A stretch of DNA of 64,000 bases from Mobula hypostoma (Eukaryota), in assembly GCF_963921235.1 (NCBI RefSeq), contig NC_086104.1, positions 102,920,001 to 102,984,000 of the forward strand, given 5' to 3'. Below are positions 211 through 63,520 of the stretch, piece by piece. Below the pieces are notes generated by a model that ran no database searches, was not told the DNA's origin, and saw nothing but the letters and a program-made list of their open reading frames with translations. The translations under genes and the position numbers were made by a program. The number at the start of each line of letters is the position of its first letter. The stretch's first letter is position 1.

Positions 211-1400
211 GTGTAAGTTTTTTACGCAGAGAGTGCTGAGTGCGTGGAATGGGCTGCCAGTAGTAGTGGTCGAGGCAGAAACAATAGGAACTTTTAAGAG
301 ACTCCTGGATAGCTACACGGAGCTTAGAAAAATAGAGGGCTATGGGTAAAGCCTAGGTAGTTCTAAGGTAGGGACATGTTCAGCACAGCTTTGTGGGCCG
401 AAGGGCCTGTACTGTGCTGTATGTTTCCTTTATCTGCCTCTCCTTGCTCCACTTCTCTAACTGATCAATCCGCTCTGTAATCTACAATAACCTTCTTAAC
501 AATCTACAAACACTCCTAATTTTGTGTTGTCCATCAACATACTGATGAAACCTTGTGCAATTACATCTAAATCATTTATATGAATAACAAATAACAAGGG
601 TCCCAACATTGACCACAGTGGCATACCATTAGTCACTGGCCTCCATTCCAAGATGGTTAGTGAGACTGTAGATGACTCCAAAATTAGTGGCATAGTGGAC
701 AGCGAAGATTATTCAGGATTGGAGTGGGATTTTGATGAAATAGTCCATTGAATGGCAGGTTATATAGCAGAATGTAAAGTGTAAAAGAGAGGAAAGAGAG
801 TGGATATCTGAATGCTGCAGAGGTAGACATGAACGACAACAAAATGATGGATGAACTGAATAGGAATTTTGCATCAGTCTTCACTGTGGAAGACACTAGC
901 AGTATGGTGGAAGTTCCAGGTGTCAGGGGGAATGAAGTGTGTGATGTTACCCTAACTAGACAGAGAGTTCTGGGGAAACAAAGTACAGTAGGTAAGTCAC
1001 CTGGACCAGATGGTGTACAATCCAGAGTTCTGAAAGAGGTGGCTGAAGAGATCACAGAGGCATTTCAAGAATCACTATATTCTGGAATAGTTCTGGAAGA
1101 ATGGGAAATTGTAAATATCACTTCATTCTTCAAGAAGGGAGAGAAGCAGAAGAAAGGAAACAATAGGCCGGTTAGTTTGACCTCATGTTTGGGAAGATGT
1201 AGGAGTCAATTATTAAGGATGAGGTCTCAGGGTACTTGGAAGCACGTGATAAAATAGGCCACTGTCAGCATAGTTTCCTCAAGGGAAAATCTTGCCTGAG
1301 AAATCTGTTGGAATTCTTTGAAGATGTAACAAGCAGGATAGACGAAGGAGAATCAGTTGATGTTCTGTAATCAGATTTTCAGAAGGCCTTTGACAAGGTA
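211..1400. mobile_element. Patchwork of CR1 fragments: 3' end (+, ~211-425), RT (-, ~490-650), ORF2 (+, ~650-1400)
   Basis: ELNRNFASVFTVED, KSPGPDG, RPVSLTS and GKSCL motifs; typical CR1 3' UTR. Confidence 0.8.
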
Positions 1401-2029
1401 CCAAACAGCTTGCTGCAAACTTTCACCATTGAAATAATAATTGAATCTTCTACTTTTTCCTTCCAACATGGTTGACCTAACATTCACCAATGTTATAATC
1501 CAGCTGCAAGACCCTTGCCCAATGATACCAGATGTGGACCACAGCTTCTAGCTACTCCCCCCCCCCCCCCCCAATGAATGATCTGAGACGTCTCTGATCC
1601 TGGCATCTGAATAAGTAACATACATCCAGAAGTATTGTTTTCATCCACGGAATTTCCTGTCTATACCCCTATCACTACCACATTCCTCTACCCCCTTCTC
1701 CTTTGAGTCACAGAGAGTCCCAGTGCCAGAGCCCTGTCCCTGGTGGCTTGTCCCTGATCTACACAACTTCTATTTCTAACTCGGGTCCCCAAGACCACCC
1801 AGCATTTGGGAATTGGAAGTTGTTTGAGAGTTCACGGTCACTGTTTTCCTGTGGAGGGAAGGAGAGAGGATGCCAAGGGATATTGACTGAAAGAATAAGC
1901 AGCATGTAATGGGTAAAGATTGCTGAAGACTGGTGGACACAGAGTGTTGGGAATGTATTAAGTAATCAGAAGAACAAAGTGGTGTCACAATATATCAGTA
2001 ACATTGAATATTAATAAAAACTCAAGAAC

Positions 2030-2700
2030 TAATAACAGTAGCAAGTAGTACTCTAAGCATATTAAGAACAAGAGGGTAACCAGAGATAAACAAAACCAAA
2101 GTGACAACCATTGTGTGGGGCCAGAGGATGTGGGCAAGGCCTGAAATGAATATTTCTCATCAGCATTCACCAAGGAGAAAGACATTGTTATTGGAGATCT
2201 CAGGTTTGGTGGTGAAGTTCTGCAGCATGTTAAGATTTAAAAGGAGAAATTATTCTGTCTTTGCAGAGATAAAAGTAGATAAATGCCCAGGCCCTGATGA
2301 GTTGTATCCCAGGCTGCTGTGGGAGACAACAGAGTGCTGGGGCCCTGATGGAGACAGTAAATGTGATATCTTAGTTCTACAATTCCTTAGCATAGTCTGT
2401 TAGAAGCTGCAGCTCGATACACTTCCCGCGGGTGTAGTCGTCAGAGACACTGGAAGTCTCCCTGCCATCCCATATCTCAAGAGGAGCATTCCACTATCCT
2501 ACCTGCCATCCTCACTGCTTTAAGTGGGCGATAAGAAAAAATAATTAATACCTACATTCTATGCCTCTCCTTGTGAAAGCCTCACCTACCTATTTCAACA
2601 TTGCCCCAACAATGGCAACTTCATCTAAACCTAACTACTTTTTATTGGTCCTTGCCAGGTGCCTAATTAAGCACAATCCAATTTCTCATTGGTGGCAGTG
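2030..2700. mobile_element. Degenerate CR1 fragments: ORF2 (+, ~2030-2350) and ORF1 N-terminus/5' region (-, ~2380-2700)
   Basis: KVDKCPGPDELYPRLLWE on +; minus-strand IWDGRETSSVSDDY..KCIELQL resembles the ORF1 zinc-finger region at 9483. Confidence 0.6.
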
Positions 2701-2879
2701 GCGTGCAAAATGTGCTGACTGCCCCCCCCCCCTCCTTTTACTCTCTCTCCCTCTACACAATCCAATGTCTCCTCAGGACCTGTAGTGCACCAATGATATA
2801 CCAGTGTTACAAAGAAAATATCTGTTAACTCCTTCAATAACTCAAAGACAGACAAGGTTTATCTCCAAATTGCTTTCTC

Positions 2880-3620
2880 GAAATCTCACCCCTACACTGA
2901 CACGTAGCCAAGTTGTCCTTGCTGTGACTGGCGAGATATCATATCTATCATCTCCTTACCACATTCAAAGATCGATGGTATTCCATTGCTTGTGAACTGA
3001 CATTCACAGCAGAACTGATGAGTTGTTGTGTTTGAGATACCTGAACTCCAATCCTTTGCCTTTTCTACCCTGTAAAATGTTTACAAAAGATATTCATGGG
3101 TGAAGGGCAATGTTTCAGACAAGGCAGTCTTTGTCTATCTGGTGATCTCTGTCGTCACACTGTCACAATGAGCCTCAACACAAATTAAGAGTACAAATCC
3201 ACGTCTTCTATCTGTCACGGCTCAGGCATCTGGCCTCAGCATTAAATTCCATGACTGTCTACCTGTCTGTATCATAATAGGTTAACTCTGCCTGTCATCT
3301 ATCTGTGATTTCACTCAGTGTGTCTCTGTCTATTGGGAAAATATAACAGCTCTGGTGATGTCCCACCGCCCTACTTGGAACTCACAGTATTTACACGGCT
3401 GCTCCTGGAGACTTTCTGATCACTGTGGCCCCAAGGTGATTGATGGTGGTGAACTCAACAATGGCAATGTCAATGAATGTCAAGGGAAGGTGATTACACT
3501 TTCTCACTGGAGATTACTTCTGTGGTGTGAATGCTACAGGTCACTTGTTACCCAAGACAGAGGTGTTCATTATCATGATACACCCTGAACCAATAGATGA
3601 AACAAAGAAACGTTCCGCTG
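2880..3620 (-). pseudogene. Highly decayed ZNF-module copy (finger remnants plus conserved intron)
   Basis: 3020-3590 aligns by eye to 6590-7170 (gttgtgtttgagat..ctgtaaaa..acaaaagac..gtgaagg..tgatggtggtgaactc..tcacttgttaccca). Confidence 0.7.
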
Positions 3621-9429: not shown

Positions 9430-12400
9430 CAGATCATGGCTACATACACACATTCGGGTTCTCCTGGCTATGACTGCAGAGTATGTCTGTAGGGTCAGTG
9501 TTCTGTTCTGGGTGTCAGATATGGGATGTCCGGGAGACTTCCAGCCTCCCTGATGGCCACTTCTGCACCAGGTGCATTGAGATGCAGCTCCTTGGAGTCC
9601 GTGTTAGGGAACTGGAGCTGCAGCTCGATGACCTTCGGCTTGTTAGGGAAAGTGAGGAGGTGATAGACTGGAGCTACAGGGAGGTAGTCGCCCCAAGGTT
9701 ACAGGAGACAGATAAATGGATGACTGTCAAGAGATGGAAGGGAGAACATCAGATAGTGGAGAACACCCCTGTGGCCGTCCCCCTCACAATAAGTACTCCA
9801 TTTTGAGTACTGTTGGGGGTTGGGGCCTACCCGGGGGAAGCAACAGCCTTTGGCACAGAGTCTGGCCCTGTGGCTCAGAAGAGTAGGAAACTGAAAAGGA
9901 TGGCAGCGGTAATAGGGGACTCTATAGTTGGTGAGACAGATAGGTGATTCTTTGGATGCAAAAAAGAAACACGGATGGCAGACTGCCTCCCAGGTGCCAG
10001 GATCCACAATGTTTCTGAACACATCCACAATATCCTGAAAAGGGAGAGTGAGCAGCCAGAACTTGTGGGACATATCGGTACCAACGACCAAGGTAGAAAA
10101 AGGAAGGAGGTCCTGAAAACAGAATACAGGGAGTTAGGAGGCAAGTTGAGAAGCTGGACCTCATGGGTAGTCATTTCGGGATTGCTGCCTGTGTCACGTG
10201 ACAGTGAGGATAGAAATAGAATGAGGTGACAGATAAATGTGTGGCGGAAGAATTGGGGCAGGAGGCAGGGATTCAGATTTCTGGATAATTGAGACCTCTT
10301 CTGACAAGTGTGACCTGTACAAAAAGGGACAGGTTGCACTTGAATCCAAGGGGGACCAATATCCTTATGGGCAGGTTTGCTAAAGTTGTTGGGAGTGGTT
10401 TAAACTAATATTGCAGTGGGACGGGAATCAGTTTGATAGAGCTGAGGATGAGCTGGAATGATGGGTGTAATATGAATGTAAGGAAGGACAAACCAATGAT
10501 TGGGTACAAATGCAGACAGAGTAAAGAGTTAAATTGTACCACTGAAGCAGAATTCAAAAGTACGAAGAATGCAAGACTGAAGGTGCTATATTTAAATGGA
10601 CATGGAATTCGGAATAAGGTGGATGAACTCATGGCACAGTTAGAGATTGGTCAGTAGGATGTTGTGGGCATCACTGAGTCATGGCTGAAAGAAGGTCATA
10701 GTTGGGAGCTTAATATAAAATTATATACTTTGTATCAAAAGGACAGGCAGGAATGCATAGGTGGTAGTAAGAGATGGAACTAAACCGTTAGAAAGAGGTG
10801 ATACAGGGTCAGAGAATATTGAATCTTTGTGAGTGGAGTTAAACTGCAAGTTAAAAAGAAAAGCCATTACAGTAATCATATATAGGCCTTCAAATAGTAG
10901 CTAAGATGTGGGGTTGAGATTGCAAAGGGAGCTGGAAAAGGCATGTAATAAGTGTAATGACACAATTGTAATGGGGGACTTCATTATGCAAGGGGATTGG
11001 AAAAATCAAGTTGATGTCGGATCGCAAGAGAGGGAATTTTTTGAACGCCAGTGAGATGGCTTTTTAGAACAGCTTGTGCTTGAGCCTACTCGGGGAAAGG
11101 CTGTCCTAGATTGGGTGTTGTGCAATAATCCAGATTTTACAAGGGAGTTTAAGATAAAGGAACCCTCTGGACAGTGATCATAATATAATTGAATTCATTC
11201 TGCAATTTGAGAGGAAGAAGCGTAAGTCAGATGTATCAGTATCACAATGGAATGAAGGGAATTACAGAGGCATGAGAGAGGAGCTTGCCCAGGTGGATTG
11301 GAGGAGGATACTGGCAGGGATGATGGCAGAACAGAGGTGGCTGAGGCTTCTGGGAATAGTTCATAAGGTACAAGATAGGTATGTCCCACAGAAAGAGAAG
11401 TTCTCAAATAGCAGGGGTAGGCAACTGTGGCAGACAAAGGAAGTTAAGGACTGCATAAAAGCCAAGAAAAGGGCATAAAAGGTAGCAAAAGTGAGTGGGA
11501 CGTTGCATGATTGGGAAGCTTTTAAATCCAACAAAAGGCAACTAAAAAAGCTATAAGAAGGGAAAAGATGAAATATGAAGGTAAACTAGCCAATAATATA
11601 AAGCAGTAGACTAAGAGTTTTCTCAGTTATATGAAGAGTAAAAGGGAAGTGACAGTTGATATTGGACCACTGGAAAATAAGGCTGGTGAGGTATTAATAG
11701 GGGACAAAGAAATGGCGGATGAACTTGGCATCAGTCTTCACTGTGGATGACACTAGCAGTCTGCCAGAGGTCCATAAGTGTCAGGGAGCGGGAATGAGTG
11801 CCATTGCTATCACAAAAGAAAAAGTGCTAGGCAAACTGTAATGTCTTAACGTGAATAAATCACCTGGACTAGATGGACTACATCTCAGTGTTCTGCAAGA
11901 GGTTGCTGAAGAAATAGCAGATGCATTGGTTATGATCTTTCAAGAATCATTTGATCCTGGTATTGTCCCAGAGGACTAGTAAATTGCAATGGTGACACCA
12001 CTCTTTAAGATGGGAAGAAGGCAAAAGAAAGGAAATTATAGGCCAATTAGCCTAACGTCAGTGATTGAGAGAGTGTTAGGAGTCTATTATTAAGATGAGG
12101 TTTCAGTGTACTTGGAGATGAATGATGAAGTAAGTCAAAGTCAGCATAGTTTCTGTAAAGGGAAATCTTGCCTGACAAATCAGTTAGAGTTCTTTGAGGA
12201 AGTATCAAGCAGGGTGGACAAAGGAGAGGCAGCGGATGTCATTCACTTGCATTTTCAGAAGGCATTTGATAAGGTGCTACACATGAGGCTGCTTAACAAG
12301 ATAAAATCCCATGGCAATACAATTAAGATACCGGCATGGACAGAGGAATGGCTGATATGAAGGAAGCAGCAAGTGGGACTAAAGGGGAATTTTTCTGGTT

Positions 12401-13670
12401 GGCTGCCAGTGACTAGCGGTGTTCCTGAGGGGTCAGTATTGGGACTGCTACTTTTCATATTAACATAGAAACATAGAAAATAGGTGCAGGAGTAGGCCAT
12501 TCAGCCCTTCGAGCCTGCACCGCCATTTATTATGATCATGGCTGATCATCCAACTCAGAACCCCGCCCCAGCCTTCCCTCCATACACCCAGATCCCCGTA
12601 GCCACAAGGGCCATATCTAACTCCCTCTTAAATATAGCCAATGAACTGGCCTCAACTGTTTCCTGTGGCAGAGAATTCCACAGATTCACCACTCTCTGTG
12701 TGAAGAAGTTTTTCCTAATCTCTAATATTGTTTGTTAATGATTTAGATAATGGAATTGATGGCTTTGTAGCAAAGTTTGCAGATGATATGAAGAGAGGTG
12801 GACGGGTAGGTAGTGCTGAGGAAGCAATGTGATTTCAGCAGGACTTAGAGAAGCTGAAGGAAGAGGGAAAAATGTGGCAGATGGTATACAGTGTTGGGAA
12901 ATGTATGATACTGCATTTTGCTAAAAGGAACAAAAGTTCAGACTATTTAAATAGGGAGAAAATTCAAACATTAGACGTGCAGAAGGACTGAGGAGTCCTT
13001 GTGCAAGACTCTCAGAAGGTTAATTTACAGGTTAAGTCTATGGTAAAGAGGGCAAATGCAATGTTGGCATTTAATTCAAGGGGAGTGTAATATAAAAGCA
13101 AGAAGACAATGCTGAGGCTTTATAAGACACTAGTCAGGCCACATTTGGAGTATTTTTGGGCCCCATATCTCAGAAAGGATGTGTTGTCATTGGAGAGAAT
13201 CCAGAGAGAGGCTATGAGAATGATTCTGGGAATGAAGGGGTTAACCTATGAGGAGCATTTGGCAGCTTTGGGTCTGTACTCACTGGAATTTAGAAGAATG
13301 CGGGGAGATCTCATTGAAACCTACCGAATGTTGAAAGGATTAGATAAGGTGGATGTGGAGAGGATGCTTCCTATGGTGGGGGGTATCCGGAACTAGAGGG
13401 CACAGCCTCAAAGTTGAGGGGTGACCCATTGGAACAGAGGTAAGGAGGAATTTTTTAGCCAGAGAATAATAAATCTGTGGAGCGCTCTGCCACAAACTCC
13501 TGTGGACACCAAGTCGGTGGTTATATGTACAGTGAAAATTGATAGTTTCCTGATTCGTCAGACCTCAAAGGTAGGTGAACGGGGTTGAGTGAAATCCGGG
13601 ATCAGCCATGATAGAATGGCGGAGCAGACTTGATGGCCTAGATCTGCTCCTATGTCATATGGTCTTATGG
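9430..13670 (+). mobile_element. Near full-length decayed CR1 LINE: ORF1 (zinc finger/leucine zipper plus esterase) and ORF2 (APE endonuclease plus RT)
   Basis: CSGC..CTRC..LELQLDDLRL; GTND; LKVLYLN..IRNKVDEL; GKSCLTNQLEFFEEV; RPHLEY; many stops. Confidence 0.92.
12463..12723 (-). mobile_element. Young CR1 3' fragment nested in the older CR1
   Basis: Nearly identical to 59320-59575; (TTTCTATG)n tail; ATATT on both flanks. Confidence 0.88.
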
Positions 13671-27599: not shown

Positions 27600-29275
27600 G
27601 CTGCATGGGGGAAAAAAACACCAAAATCTGGTTATGAAAGGATCTATAAAGCAAGGTAACTTGAGAACCTGTGTCACATCTGGCTCTAGCATAAACACCT
27701 TCAATCAGAGCCTGGACCCGCTAAACCTTTAGGAATTGGAAGGTATCCTCTCCAAAATGCCAGCCTGTTCCTTTACTGGGTCCCTCTGTAGCTTTGCCTC
27801 CTTTCTTCTTTGTTTGATTAATCGCTAACTCAGTTTTCAAAGATTTTCCCGTTCCTCACAGTCTTGCTTGAGATATCCATCTTTTCCACAGCTGTAACAG
27901 AAAATACCCATCACCTCTCTAGTCAGGAGACCCTTTTCAACAGCATTCTGCTGCATCATGAGCCCTACAGGTGGGTTGGGTTTTCTAACAGACGTATCAT
28001 GTTTAGTTGAAACATTAGCAGACATCCATCAAATCAGCTCACCTCAAAGGTTTTCCACCCCATTCCTTAAAAGCTCTATCTCCATGGTATCAGGGGCCAC
28101 TTTGGCAACAGAGGCTATCCATGAAGACACTGCTCTGCTTTTGGAAACTCCTGTTTCTCAATCACGTTTTCCTCCTTTCTAACTTCTCTGAGTAACTCAG
28201 TAAAAGATGGAGTGCGCATCTTGCAGGTCATTCAAATACATAGAGCAATCACATCATGTGACAGTATCCTTCACAACTTTCTCCATCCTCAAGCAGTTTC
28301 TCCCAGACGGCTGAATGCCCCGTTTGTGGTACAAACAATTCAGCAGCTTCTCCAACCTGAAAATGTAGGCAGACAGCACTTGTTCTTCCTGGAATGTGAG
28401 CCTGAACTTCACCATCGGATTGGCTGCACTTTCAGCAGTGCCAGAAGTATTTTACAGAGCTTGCAGGTAAGTAGCTGACATGGGTAATGGATTTTCTATC
28501 TGTAGGAACCTCAGTATATCAGCCGCTGGACCCTTTAACCTCTCGACCAGTGTCTGTTTTTTCATGTTATCTGAGCACTGCCATTCATCCAGTAACTGGG
28601 ATGTCTGCTCAGCCCCAGCCTCGCTTTTCTACCCCATCGGCTGTGGGCTTGACTCCAGAGAACATTTCCAGCCTACAATGACTGGCACTCTGCAGATGCA
28701 TTTCTGCATTTAGTAACCAGTGACGGAATAGCCAAAACCAACTCAGAATTTAAATCAACCACTGAAGGACCCACTAAACCTTTCACATCAGACAACTCCT
28801 TTCCCTCAATTTGCAGAAATGAGAACAACTTGTTTTTAAAGTTTTCACCCTCAGCTACATACCCCTATTCTCAAAAATATGGACTGCCCATAGCCCCACC
28901 TCTTTAGGATCTCCAAACCTATCAGGCAGCATGACTTCAGTCACATCACAGCTAGTCTGGACTAACATGACATACTTACCAGTGGATTGGTCAAAATAGT
29001 GTTCACTCAGTGTAACTTACCCTAAACCCTGGAAAAAAGACTTAGCACTCTGAACACATGTTCATCACAAACTTGGACATCCACCCTGCTCAAGCATCGT
29101 CTGTAGATAATCTCTTTGAATTGTACCAACCCTTAATCCCTGCAGTGTCCATCATAAGGTACCTTAGTCACTTTCCCTGACATTAGTTTAAACAAATGCT
29201 TAAACACACAAACCGCTTAATCAATTCTTCACAGCAATTACACAGCATGCAGTGAATCCCGGATGAGCCCCTACT
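27600..29275 (-). mobile_element. Gypsy LTR retrotransposon 5' internal region: PBS-Pro, PNMA-like gag with zinc knuckle, protease start; decayed
   Basis: PBS taggggctcatccgggat (29273-29256); ATG at 29152; LLDEWQCSD..KQTLVERLKGPAADILRFL; CYSCGKDGYLKQDC; DTGSQVTLL. Confidence 0.85.
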
Positions 29276-59306: not shown

Positions 59307-59406
59307 TTATAGAAACATAGAAACATAGAAAATAGGTGCAGGAGTAGGCCATTCGGCCCTTTGAGCCTGCACCGCCATTTATTATGATCATGGCTGATCA
59401 TCCAAC

Positions 59407-62400
59407 TCAGAACCCCGCCCCAGCCTTCCCTCCACACCCCCTGACCCCTGTAGCCACAAGGGCCATATCTAACTCCCTCTTAAACATAGCCAATGAACTG
59501 GCCTCAACAGTTTGCTGTGGCGGAGAATTCCACAGATTCACCACTCTCTGTGTGAAGAAGTTTTTCCTAATCTCGGTCCTAAAAGGCTTCCCCTCTATCC
59601 TCAAACTGTAACCCCTCGTTCTGGACCTCCCCAACATCGGGAACAATCTTCCCGCATCTAGCCTGTCCAATCCCTTTAGGATCTTATACGTTTCAATCAG
59701 ATCCCCCATCAATCTTCTAAATTCCAACGAGTACAAGCCCAGTTCATCCAGTCTTTCTTCATATGAAAGACCTGCCATCCCAGGAATCAATCTGGTGAAC
59801 CTTCTTTGTACTCCCTCTATGGCAAAGATGTCTTTCCTCAGATTAGGGGACCAAAACTGCACACAATACTCCAGGTGTGGTCTCACCAAGGCCTTGTACA
59901 ACTGCAGTAGTACCTCCCTGCTCCTGTACTCGAATCCTCTCGCTATAAATGCCAGCATACCGTTCGCCTTTTTCACCGCCTGCTGTACCTGCATGCCCAC
60001 TTTCAATGACTGGTGTATAATGACACCCAGGTCTCGTTGCACCTCCCCTTTTCCTAATCGGCCACCATTCAGATAATAATCTGTTTTCCTATTTTTGCCA
60101 CCAAAGTGGATAACTTCACATTTATCCACATTAAATTGCATCTGCCATGAGTTTGCCCACTCACCCAACCTATCCAAGTCACCCTGCATCCTCTTAGCAT
60201 CCTCCTCACTGCTAACACTGCCACCCAGCTTCGTGTCATCCGCAAACTTGGAGATGCTGCATTTAATTCCCTCATCCAAGTCATTAATATATATTGTAAA
60301 CAACTGGGGTCCCAGCACTGAGCCTTGCGGTACCCCACTAGTCACCGCCTGCCATTCTGAAAAGGTCCCGTTTATTCCCACTCTTTGCTTCCTGTCTGCT
60401 AACCAATTCTCCACCCACACCAATACCTTACCCCCAATACCGTGTGCTTTAAGTTTGCACACTAATCTCCTGTGTGGGACCTTGTCAAAAGCCTTTTGAA
60501 AATCCAAATATACCACATCCACTGGTTCTCCCCTATCCACTCTACTAGTTACATCCTCAAAAAATTCTATGAGATTCGTCAGACATGATTTTCCTTTCAC
60601 AAATCCATGCTGACTTTGTCCGATCATTTCACCGCTTTCCAAATGTGCTGTTATCACATCCTTGATAACTGACTCCAGCAGTTTCCCCACCACCGACGTT
60701 AGGCTAACCAGTCTATAATTCCCCGGTTTCTCTCTCCCTCCTTTTTTAAAAAGTGGGGTTATATTAGCCACCCTCCAATCCTCAGGAACTAGTCCAGAAT
60801 CTAACGAGTTTTGAAAAATTATCACTAATGCATCCACTATTTCTTGGGCTACTTCCTTAAGCACTCTAGGATGCAGACCATCTGGCCCTGGGGATTTATC
60901 TGCCTTCAATCCCTTCAATTTACCTAACACCACTTCCCTACTAACATGTATTTCACTCAGTTCCTCCATCTCACTGGACCCTCTGTCCCTTACTATTTCT
61001 GGAAGATTATTTATGTCCTCCTTAGTGAAGACAGAACCAAAGTAATTATTCAATTGGTCTGCCATGTCCTTGCTCCCCATAATCAATTCACCTGTTTCTG
61101 TCAGCAGTGAGCCTACATTTGACTTTACCAGTCTTTTCCTTTTTACATATCTATAAAAGCTTTTACAGTCCGTTTTTATGTTCTCTGCCAGTTTTCTCTC
61201 ATAATCTTTTTTCCCCTTCCTAATTAAGCCCTTTGTCCTCCTCTGCTGAACTCTGAATTTCTCCCAGTCCTCAGGTGAGCCACTTTCTCTGGCTAATTTG
61301 TATGCTACTTCTTTGGAATTGATACTATCCCTAATTTCTCTTGTCAGCCACGGGTGCGCTACCTTCCTTGATTTATTCTTTTGCCAAACTGGGATGAACA
61401 ATTGTTGTAGTTCATCCATGCAACCTTTAAATGCTTGCCATTGCATATCCACCGTCAATCCTTTAAGTGTCATTTGCCAGTCTATCTTAGCTAATTCACG
61501 TCTCATACCTTCAAAGTTACCCCTCTTTAAGTTCAGAACCTTTGTTTCTGAATTAATTATGTCACTCTCCATCTTAATGAAGAATTCCACCATATTATGG
61601 TCACTCTTACCCAAGGGGCCTCTCACGACAAGATCGCTAATTAACCCTTCCTCATTGCTCAAAACCCAGTCCAGAATAGCCTGCTCTCTAGTTGGTTCTT
61701 CGACACGTTGGTTCAAAAAACCATCCCGCATACATTCCAAGAAATCCTCTTCCTCAGCACCTTTACCAATTTGGTTCACCCAGTCTACATGTAGATTGAA
61801 GTCACCCATTATAACTGCTGTTCCTTTATTGCACACATTTCTAATTTCCTGTTTAATACCATCTCCGACCTCACTACTACTGTTAGGTGGCCTGTACACA
61901 ACTCCCACCAGCGTCTTCTGCCCCTTAGTGTTACGCAGCTCTACCCATATCGATTCCACATCTTCCCGGCTTATGTCCTTCCTTTCTATTGCGTTAATCT
62001 CTTTTTTAACCAGCAATGCCACCCCACCTCCCCTTCCTTCATGTCTATCCCTCCTGAATATTGAATATCCCTGAACGTTGAGCTCCCATCCCTGGTCACC
62101 CTGGAGCCATGTATCTGTGATCCCAACTATATCATAATCATTAATAGCAATCTGCACTTTCAATTCATCCACCTTATTACGAATGCTCCTTGCATTGACA
62201 CATAAAGCCTTCAGGCGCTCTTTTACAACTCTCTTAGCCCTTGTACAATTATGTTGAAAAGTGGCCCTTTTTAATGCTTGCCCTGGATTTGTCGGCCTGC
62301 CACTTTTACTTTTCTCCTTTGTACTTTTTGCTTCTACGCTCACTTTACACCCCTCTGTCTCTCTGCACTGGTTCCCATCCCTCTGTTGTGAACTAACCTC

Positions 62401-62439
62401 CTCACGCCTAGCCTCTTTAATTTGATTCCCACCCCCCAA
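59407..62439 (-). CDS. CR1 ORF2: APE endonuclease plus reverse transcriptase, intact frame (no AUG until inside the endonuclease)
   Basis: NARSI, GITDTW, YRPP, MGDFN, SDH; QHGF..GKSCLTNL; SGVPQGSVLGP; KFADDT; no stops over 1010 codons. Confidence 0.93.
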   Translation of the reverse strand: MGGGNQIKEARREEVSSQQRDGNQCRETEGCKVSVEAKSTKEKSKSGRPTNPGQALKRATFQHNCTRAKRVVKERLKALCVNARSIRNKVDELKVQIAINDYDIVGITDTWLQGDQGWELNVQGYSIFRRDRHEGRGGGVALLVKKEINAIERKDISREDVESIWVELRNTKGQKTLVGVVYRPPNSSSEVGDGIKQEIRNVCNKGTAVIMGDFNLHVDWVNQIGKGAEEEDFLECMRDGFLNQRVEEPTREQAILDWVLSNEEGLISDLVVRGPLGKSDHNMVEFFIKMESDIINSETKVLNLKRGNFEGMRRELAKIDWQMTLKGLTVDMQWQAFKGCMDELQQLFIPVWQKNKSRKVAHPWLTREIRDSINSKEVAYKLARESGSPEDWEKFRVQQRRTKGLIRKGKKDYERKLAENIKTDCKSFYRYVKRKRLVKSNVGSLLTETGELIMGSKDMADQLNNYFGSVFTKEDINNLPEIVRDRGSSEMEELSEIHVSREVVLGKLKGLKADKSPGPDGLHPRVLKEVAQEIVDALVIIFQNSLDSGLVPEDWRVANITPLFKKGGREKPGNYRLVSLTSVVGKLLESVIKDVITAHLESGEMIGQSQHGFVKGKSCLTNLIEFFEDVTSRVDRGEPVDVVYLDFQKAFDKVPHRRLVCKLKAHGIGGKVLVWVENWLADRKQRVGINGTFSEWQAVTSGVPQGSVLGPQLFTIYINDLDEGIKCSISKFADDTKLGGSVSSEEDAKRMQGDLDRLGEWANSWQMQFNVDKCEVIHFGGKNRKTDYYLNGGRLGKGEVQRDLGVIIHQSLKVGMQVQQAVKKANGMLAFIARGFEYRSREVLLQLYKALVRPHLEYCVQFWSPNLRKDIFAIEGVQRRFTRLIPGMAGLSYEERLDELGLYSLEFRRLMGDLIETYKILKGLDRLDAGRLFPMLGRSRTRGYSLRIEGKPFRTEIRKNFFTQRVVNLWNSPPQQTVEASSLAMFKRELDMALVATGVRGCGGKAGAGF

Positions 62440-62444
62440 CCATT

Positions 62445-62789
62445 CTAGTTTAAAGTCACCTCAGTAGCCCCCGCTAATCTCCCTGCCAGGATATTGGTCC
62501 CCCTAGGATTCAAGTGTAACCCGTCCTTTTTGTACAGGTCACGCCTGCGCCAAAAGAGGTCCCAATGATCCAAAAACTTGAATCCCTGCCCCCTGCTCCA
62601 ATCCCTCAGCCACGCATTTATCCTCCACCTCATCGCATTCCTACTCTCACTGTCGCGTGGCACAGGCAGTAATCCCGAGATTACTACCTTTGCGGTCCTT
62701 TTTCTCAACTCCCTTCCTAGCTCCCTATATTCTCCTTTCAGGACCTCATCCCTTTTCCTACCTATGTCATTGGTACCTATATGTACCAC
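62445..62789 (-). CDS. CR1 ORF1 C-terminal SGNH esterase domain (5'-truncated)
   Basis: HIGTNDI...DGLHLN...TLN*. Confidence 0.88.
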   Translation of the reverse strand: MVHIGTNDIGRKRDEVLKGEYRELGRELRKRTAKVVISGLLPVPRDSESRNAMRWRINAWLRDWSRGQGFKFLDHWDLFWRRRDLYKKDGLHLNPRGTNILAGRLAGATEVTLN

Positions 62790-62807
62790 GACCTCTGGCT
62801 CTTATAG

Positions 62808-63520
62808 TTTGGAATTTGTGCCTATCTTCACATCGTCCACAAACTTGCCCACAGAGCCAATCTATTCCTTCATTCAAATCACTGACATACAACATGAAAA
62901 GAAGTGGTCCCAACATCGACCCCTGCAGCACACCACTACTCACTGGCAACCAGCCAGAAAAGGTTTCCTCTATGCCCACACTTTGAATTCTGCCAGTCAG
63001 CCAATCTTCTATCCATGCTAGTACCTTTCCTGTACTCCCATGTTAGAACTTGTCAAAGGCCTTCTGAAAATCCAAATGCACAACATTCACTGACTCTCCT
63101 TTGTCTATCCTGCCTGTTTTTTCCTCAAAGAATTCCAACAAATATGTCAGGCAAGATTTTCCCTATGCTGATTTTGGCCTATTTTATGATGTCCCTTGTT
63201 ACTAATAGATTCCAACATCTTCCCAACAATTGAAGTCAGACTAACTGGCCTATAATTTCCTTTCTTCTTCCTCCCTCCTGTCTTAAAGAGTAGAATGAAT
63301 TTGCAATTTATCAGTCCTCTGGAACCAGTCCAGAATCAAATCATTCTTGAAAGATCATTACTAATGTCTCCATAATCTCTCCAGCTACCTCTTTCAGAAC
63401 CATGTGTTGTAGTCCATCTGGTCCAGGTGACTTATCAACCTTCAGGCTTTTCAACATTCAAACTTCTGGTATACTGCTAGTGTCTTCCACACTGAAGACA
63501 GATGCAAGGTATGTATTCTG
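62808..63520 (-). mobile_element. Older decayed CR1 ORF2 fragment
   Basis: WLPVSSGVLQGSMLGPLLF; ASVFSVED. Confidence 0.85.

Follow-up and report, generated by a model that had tools for sequence, protein, structure and literature searches.

A slippery heptamer conserved at the ORF1/ORF2 junction of esterase-type CR1 elements points to -1 ribosomal frameshifting

A CR1 element and its ORF1/ORF2 junction

We analysed a stretch of 64,000 nucleotides of the Mobula hypostoma genome (NC_086104.1, positions 102,920,001 to 102,984,000; hereafter the window), which carries on its minus strand a copy of a CR1 long interspersed nuclear element (LINE). The first open reading frame (ORF1) of this copy ends in a heptamer of the slippery type, and the frame encoding its endonuclease (EN) and reverse transcriptase (RT), ORF2, opens at the same place in the -1 frame. 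The initial annotation of the window had proposed that such an element may make an ORF1-ORF2 fusion by -1 frameshifting, and this proposal is supported, at the level of sequence, by conservation of the heptamer at silent positions and by the lack, in the element's own family, of an in-frame AUG ahead of the endonuclease. The features concerned are listed below.

62448..62801, minus strand: 3' part of CR1 ORF1 with the SGNH/GDSL esterase domain (Pfam PF13472, E 1e-15), 5'-truncated at 62801
62461..62463, minus strand: TGA closing the -1 (ORF2) frame, two codons 5' of the heptamer
62448..62454, minus strand: slippery heptamer T_TTA_AAC (U_UUA_AAC), the final ORF1 codons Leu-Asn
62445..62447, minus strand: ORF1 stop TAG adjoining the heptamer (TAG, TAA or TGA in other lineages)
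62427..62437, minus strand: G-run GGGGGG T GGG A, 10 nt past the heptamer, a candidate linear stimulator
62199..62447, minus strand: -1 frame linker from the slip site to the endonuclease, without AUG or stop
61561..62220, minus strand: APE endonuclease, conserved Asn (NARS) at codon 89 (Pfam PF03372/PF14529)
60085..60738, minus strand: reverse transcriptase, Pfam RVT_1 (PF00078)
59407..62460, minus strand: ORF2 frame, 1017 codons stop to stop
59309..59331, minus strand: TTTCTATG octamer repeats, 3' terminus of the element
10399..10408, plus strand: heptamer and TAA ending ORF1 of an older CR1 copy (~10053-12946)

On the minus strand the junction reads ...GCTAC TGA GGT GAC TTT AAA CTA GAA TGG TTG GGG... 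in the -1 frame. Rereading confirmed that ORF1 ends ACT TTA AAC TAG, with the heptamer at 62454-62448 in the X_XXY_YYZ phase, as the initial annotation had it. The -1 frame is indeed the long EN and RT frame, although its length is 1017 codons stop to stop (62460-59407) instead of the 1010 first given; it is open for 85 codons before the endonuclease. The first in-frame ATG does lie in VIMGDFN within the endonuclease, at codon 218 (61809) and not at about 210. Likewise, a G-rich tract, GGTTGGGGGGTGGG, begins 6 nt past the heptamer, but its conserved portion is the G-run that starts at 10 nt (62437-62432).

ORF1 homologues in birds, turtles and frogs place the element in the CR1 clade, as a LINE with an esterase-type ORF1. 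The following features of the clade are present: an esterase ORF1, an APE endonuclease followed by RT, octamer repeats at the 3' end, and 5' truncation. In intact copies of the family, ORF1 runs for 311 aa from ATG to stop and contains an N-terminal Cys finger, as in the copy L004 and in homologues. The closest named ORF1 homologue is 97% identical and comes from Mobula hypostoma itself, and 144 of 150 scored matches in its own genome are 100% identical across 101 aa, indicating that the family is young. The window copy, truncated at 62801, has no ORF1 start of its own from which translation could begin. Its endonuclease has Asp at a position where 29/29 family copies have Glu (GITETW), and this substitution together with the truncation makes the copy probably inactive.

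Other CR1 sequences lie in the window. An older, broken RT fragment (within 62801-63454, minus strand) directly adjoins the truncated young copy on the same strand. The older plus-strand element at ~10053-12946, whose ORF1 protein is 64-69% identical, has the junction GGT TTA AAC TAA. A third TTTAAAC followed by TAA and then GGG was found at 29183-29192 on the minus strand; no esterase ORF1 linked to it was detected, and it is probably a chance occurrence. More ORF1 and RT fragments occur at 7-204 and 889-1415 on the plus strand, with no intact junction.

Conservation of the heptamer and of the ORF2 frame

The junction 10-mer, with one mismatch allowed, was seen 6 times in the 64 kb against 3.7 expected. 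A single 10-mer is thus at chance level; the evidence, beyond chance, is that different lineages keep it at the ORF1 stop. At the protein level, a Leu-Asn C-terminus was found in 96/120 and 59/79 homologous ORF1 proteins in two sets that include sharks, rays, Xenopus, Hyla, turtles and many birds, and many of the homologues ending otherwise are truncated or chimeric gene models. A stork gene model (P0246) reads FKLDSKGE in the -1 frame at the junction, which is compatible with the G-run. The residue before Leu-Asn was E, K, Q, M or W in 1 of 42 non-redundant tails, as expected from a codon ending in T; since positions -7 to -10 are equally low in these residues, this bias was not counted as evidence.

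At the nucleotide level, 150 loci of the same genome were collected with six protein queries that lacked the junction; five of these, made later with esterase pieces, added 120. The exact heptamer was located within 130 nt of the DGLHL motif in 121 of these loci, with a stop behind it in 116; the larger families are ~58-80% identical to one another in DNA. Synonymous variation was then scored in one real copy per lineage group, chosen by the position of the ORF1 stop without regard to the heptamer (of 13 groups, 11 were used, two lacking a frame-intact copy; groups A and A2 are close). The terminal Leu codon was TTA in all 11 copies, against a share of 12.9% for TTA among the Leu codons of ORF1. 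As controls, seven further ORF1 columns with invariant Leu contained 3-5 codons each, with a top share of 0.30-0.71. The terminal Asn was AAC in 10 of 11. The base preceding TTA was T in 11/11, compared with 21% T at third positions, although the residue carrying it was Thr, Gly, Ala, Tyr, His, Leu or Asp. The initial annotation had asked whether the Leu-Asn codons vary synonymously, and no such pattern was found. Fixation of TTA and of the preceding T at silent positions is the pattern expected of selection on a slippery heptamer, and not of selection on Leu-Asn.

The junction is also kept in elements on metagenome contigs and in metagenome-assembled genomes (MAGs), whose ORF1 proteins are 33-42% identical: L091 reads CAT TTA AAC TAG, and the L092 group and L140/L141 read TAT TTA AAC TAG. 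Most other matches of these searches were unrelated or distant SGNH proteins and were excluded from the junction counts. L140 and L141 are labelled as bacterial MAG contigs and contain whole CR1 elements, and a protein labelled as a Pseudomonas aeruginosa SGNH hydrolase (P0021) is a shark-like CR1 ORF1 (65% identical, ending GLN); all three are animal DNA within prokaryote records. A distant group of CR1 ORF1 proteins (P0074, P0076, P0078 and relatives, ~35% identity) has precomputed SH3 hits (PF00018/PF14604) before the esterase. In viral contigs, the ORF1 search gave no relatives, and 120 stretches with the junction pattern, 80 of them with flanks, had no esterase or EN match and were set aside as chance matches.

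The -1 frame is closed 1-14 codons 5' of the heptamer in 11/12 lineage copies and open from there on. The endonuclease lies in the -1 frame in most scored copies of eight lineages, behind linkers of 34-109 codons. Stops per linker in the -1, 0 and +1 frames were 0.11, 5.7 and 8.0 in the window's family A (27 copies), 0.18, 10.9 and 9.5 in C (17 copies), and 0.11, 3.3 and 5.7 in D (9 copies). An in-frame Met before the endonuclease, which by the initial annotation would have counted against the proposal, was absent in 25/27 in-frame copies of family A, in 9/9 of D, and in E, L091 and L141; in all of these the -1 frame is open without a start of its own, as expected for -1 programmed ribosomal frameshifting. 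No near-cognate start codon was found at a position common to the lineages.

Initiation at the first Met of ORF2 was considered and rejected, because it would cost much of the endonuclease: in the window copy, a start at codon 218 would remove most of the domain. An EN profile search matched L1 EN structures, with the alignment to human L1 EN beginning at residue 9, and in this profile alignment L1 EN Met143 is the counterpart of the first Met in family A. A start there would lose the N-terminal half of the domain with the equivalents of N14, E43 and Y115, which are catalytic residues of L1 EN. A phmmer search of PDB with the endonuclease gave no match, and a single-sequence AlphaFold model had a pLDDT (predicted local distance difference test score) of 33. 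Stop-codon readthrough, the route reported for ZfL2-1, was likewise rejected, since the 0 frame closes soon and the endonuclease is in -1.

Downstream sequence, proposed mechanism and alternatives

Canonical -1 sites need a stem-loop or pseudoknot 5-9 nt downstream, and this 3' structure is the sole canonical feature, among those tested, not found at the CR1 junction. The 80 nt 3' of the heptamer are 68-80% purine. The pseudoknot or G-quadruplex that the initial annotation had envisaged was not borne out as a conserved fold; what is conserved on the 3' side is a short, linear run of G. At positions +11 to +15, G was present at 52/60 across 12 lineage copies versus 0.31 in linkers, in copies that were located via the heptamer and are therefore not independent of it. 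The run extends over third codon positions beneath differing residues. It begins at +11 in family I and at +9 in family J (a spacer of 8-10 nt) and is absent in L280. A linear motif about 10 nt downstream without structure is what characterises the protein-stimulated type of frameshifting, exemplified by PRRSV (see below) and cardioviruses. The G-runs beside the slip site expand and contract between copies (L061-L090, L314-L333), 5' of the heptamer in family C and 3' of it in J, and such length changes are a frequent source of broken frames after insertion.

Taken together, these data show a junction that is real and conserved and is probably functional, and we consider it highly probable, from sequence comparison, that ORF2 of esterase-type CR1 LINEs is translated through -1 programmed frameshifting, to give an ORF1-ORF2 fusion. 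Most ribosomes would read ORF1 to Leu-Asn and terminate. A minority, their UUA and AAC codons occupied by tRNA-Leu and tRNA-Asn, would move back by one base to UUU and AAA, bypass the stop, and continue through ...Leu-Asn-Leu-Glu-Trp..., a flexible linker, the endonuclease and RT, and the product would be a gag-pol-like ORF1p-ORF2p fusion made at a low fixed ratio. We infer that ribosomes do shift here and that the fusion is the active ORF2p. The pause would come from the adjacent stop codon, from a protein bound to the G-run, or from both, and not from RNA structure. A low basal rate from heptamer and stop may suffice, because little ORF2p is needed.

Several observations weigh against frameshifting at this site. 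Local folds did not surpass those of shuffled sequences (z -0.6 to +2.0, 12 sequences); no conserved 3' stem-loop or pseudoknot stem was found with ViennaRNA, which does not model pseudoknots; a G-quadruplex was favoured in 2/11 lineages and hence is not conserved; and a search for long-range duplexes gave no partner common to the lineages. One control Gly column is as codon-invariant as the terminal Leu (GGA 9/9), and the lineages have common ancestry, so that the lineage counts are not independent. Conservation in birds, turtles and frogs is known from protein ends alone, and ORF1 proteins of the P0059/P0062 type end otherwise than in Leu-Asn. In-frame linker AUGs occur in C (17/17, codon 18), B (3/4), I (4/5 scored) and G, making reinitiation possible in those lineages, which nonetheless retain the heptamer and a frame open up to it. 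The endonuclease was not located by pattern in family J (0/20), and the single old copies F and H have it in another frame. L098, a CR1-like element (RT 51% identical), reads T_TTT_CAC in place of the heptamer, possibly an alternative shift site or a mutated copy, so the heptamer is not universal in the wider group. Finally, all translation steps are deduced from sequence. L098 itself (787-3069) is an esterase LINE with a longer ORF1 tail, a -1 overlap of ~26 codons and no Met before the endonuclease.

The linker AUGs bear on what we regard as the strongest, though still improbable, alternative, in which ribosomes terminate and then resume translation in the -1 frame from an AUG or non-AUG codon close by, aided by the heptamer and the G-run, to make a separate ORF2p. 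Reinitiation is the accepted route in other LINEs, having been demonstrated in SART1 and put forward for L1 (PMC3708506, PMC3894237, and PMC5009743 on L1). The AUGs in C, B, I and G, the TTG codons that A, C, D, E and W2 have 4-5 codons into the -1 frame, and the failure to find a structural frameshift stimulator would all suit it. However, the junction has no UAAUG-type overlap. The AUG just past the window stop (TAG A ATG) lies in a different frame and is not conserved; none of the start codons stands at a position common to the lineages; and a good near-cognate start is lacking in L091 and L092. Above all, reinitiation leaves unexplained why an in-phase X_XXY_YYZ heptamer is kept at silent positions.

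Silent conservation that includes the G-run, which has no obvious role in slippage, could instead reflect another RNA or DNA signal in cis, with TTTAAACTAR..GGGGG serving protein binding, packaging, an internal promoter or splicing, and ORF2 made from a spliced or subgenomic RNA. We think this very unlikely. A splice acceptor can be rejected because B, C, I and J have TAA and G has TGA, without the AG of TAG; a subgenomic RNA would still have no AUG in A, D, E, L091 and L141; and the opening of the -1 frame coincides exactly with the heptamer. Contigs of four sequencing runs, in which strand, starts and splicing are not reliably shown, add the weak point that there was no GT..AG among the 15 joints listed out of 28, the RNA status of the contigs being guessed. 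Least probable of all in our view is that ORF1p needs a C-terminal Leu-Asn, with shared ancestry or codon bias accounting for the rest, or that transcription slips on the T and A runs. Proteins down to 34% identity keep Leu-Asn, but a need for these residues cannot fix TTA over five other Leu codons or the T of a variable preceding codon, and the synonymous test largely refutes this explanation. Polymerase slippage would need longer tracts than the three T and three A present here, and no insertion at the site was listed in the same contigs, again a weak point.

Implications and comparison with known systems

Full-text literature searches found no paper proposing frameshifting in CR1; older subscription papers on chicken and turtle CR1, Kapitonov & Jurka 2003, Repbase notes and supplements were outside their coverage and may mention the overlap. 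By term search, 'frameshift', 'overlap' and 'start codon' are absent from a 2026 survey of the vertebrate CR1 group (PMC13343379), as is 'frameshift' from the ZfL2-1 esterase paper and 'CR1' from the portion of PMC5009743 consulted. CR1 dominates among the LINEs of birds, reptiles and cartilaginous fish and is abundant in rays. If frameshifting is correct, it would answer the open question of how ORF2 is translated in this group, and CR1 would resort to a fusion of the gag-pol kind, which is regarded as typical of retroviruses and long terminal repeat (LTR) elements. CR1 ORF2 annotation would change, as ORF2 would have no start codon and ORF1p would be its N-terminus; the Leu-Asn end of CR1 ORF1 proteins would be explained; and retrotransposition assays would gain a design rule. 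The single conserved slippery site makes ORF2 expression directly testable in the most widespread vertebrate LINE clade, and a structure-free, possibly protein-stimulated signal may join the few known.

Reviews treat LINE ORF2 initiation as an open question and cite UAAUG coupling in SART1 and 2A peptides (PMC3894237, PMC3708506), while L1 ORF2 has been attributed to unusual initiation and HeT-A gag to frameshifting (PMC5009743). SART1 coupling, AUG-independent reinitiation in L1 and 2A StopGo in the CR1/L2 group resemble the route proposed here in expressing ORF2 at a low level, but they yield a separate ORF2p, and the CR1 junction, unlike SART1 and the StopGo elements, has neither UAAUG nor a 2A motif. 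One esterase LINE in our collection (L101:1532-2617) has a 2A-like GDVELNPGP just before the endonuclease of ORF2, the StopGo layout described in PMC3708506. In Drosophila R1 the ORFs overlap in -1 or -2 (PMC2718515). The nearest precedent in the literature covered is that of the APE-type non-LTR elements TRE5-A and TRE3-A of Dictyostelium, in which a -1 frameshift is stated to be required for ORF2 translation (PMC5911963); their ORF1 and host are unrelated, and CR1 differs in having one fixed heptamer across many animal lineages.

Few -1 heptamers are as shift-prone on mammalian ribosomes as U_UUA_AAC (PMC5009743). Judged by its sequence, CR1 shares with coronavirus ORF1a/1b and with retroviral and LTR gag-pol (PMC5009743) the heptamer and its phase, a -1 enzyme ORF without its own start, and a structural protein predicted to be in excess. 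It differs from them in being a non-LTR element, in the stop that adjoins the heptamer, in that no pseudoknot or stem-loop was detected, and in having no protease domain to cut the fusion. A closer match in geometry, and in geometry only, is the -1/-2 shift in nsp2 of the virus of porcine reproductive and respiratory syndrome (PRRSV), which has no discernible 3' structure and a C-rich motif 11 nt downstream that binds nsp1beta and PCBP (PMC7939443). The CR1 G-run likewise starts at +11 (+9 in family J) without structure; the motif is G-rich and not C-rich, and its binding protein is hypothetical. By analogy, we tentatively suggest, as a possibility that we hold to be rather less than even, that over hundreds of millions of years the CR1 clade has kept a structure-free -1 signal (U_UUA_AAC, stop, spacer of 8-10 nt, G-run), which a G-run-binding protein, either a host factor or ORF1p, activates in trans, and that the uncut esterase-endonuclease-RT fusion places ORF2p into the ORF1p particle. 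Such a signal would be a counterpart, in cellular genomes, of the protein-stimulated frameshift of PRRSV, and could act as a host-tunable switch of retrotransposition.

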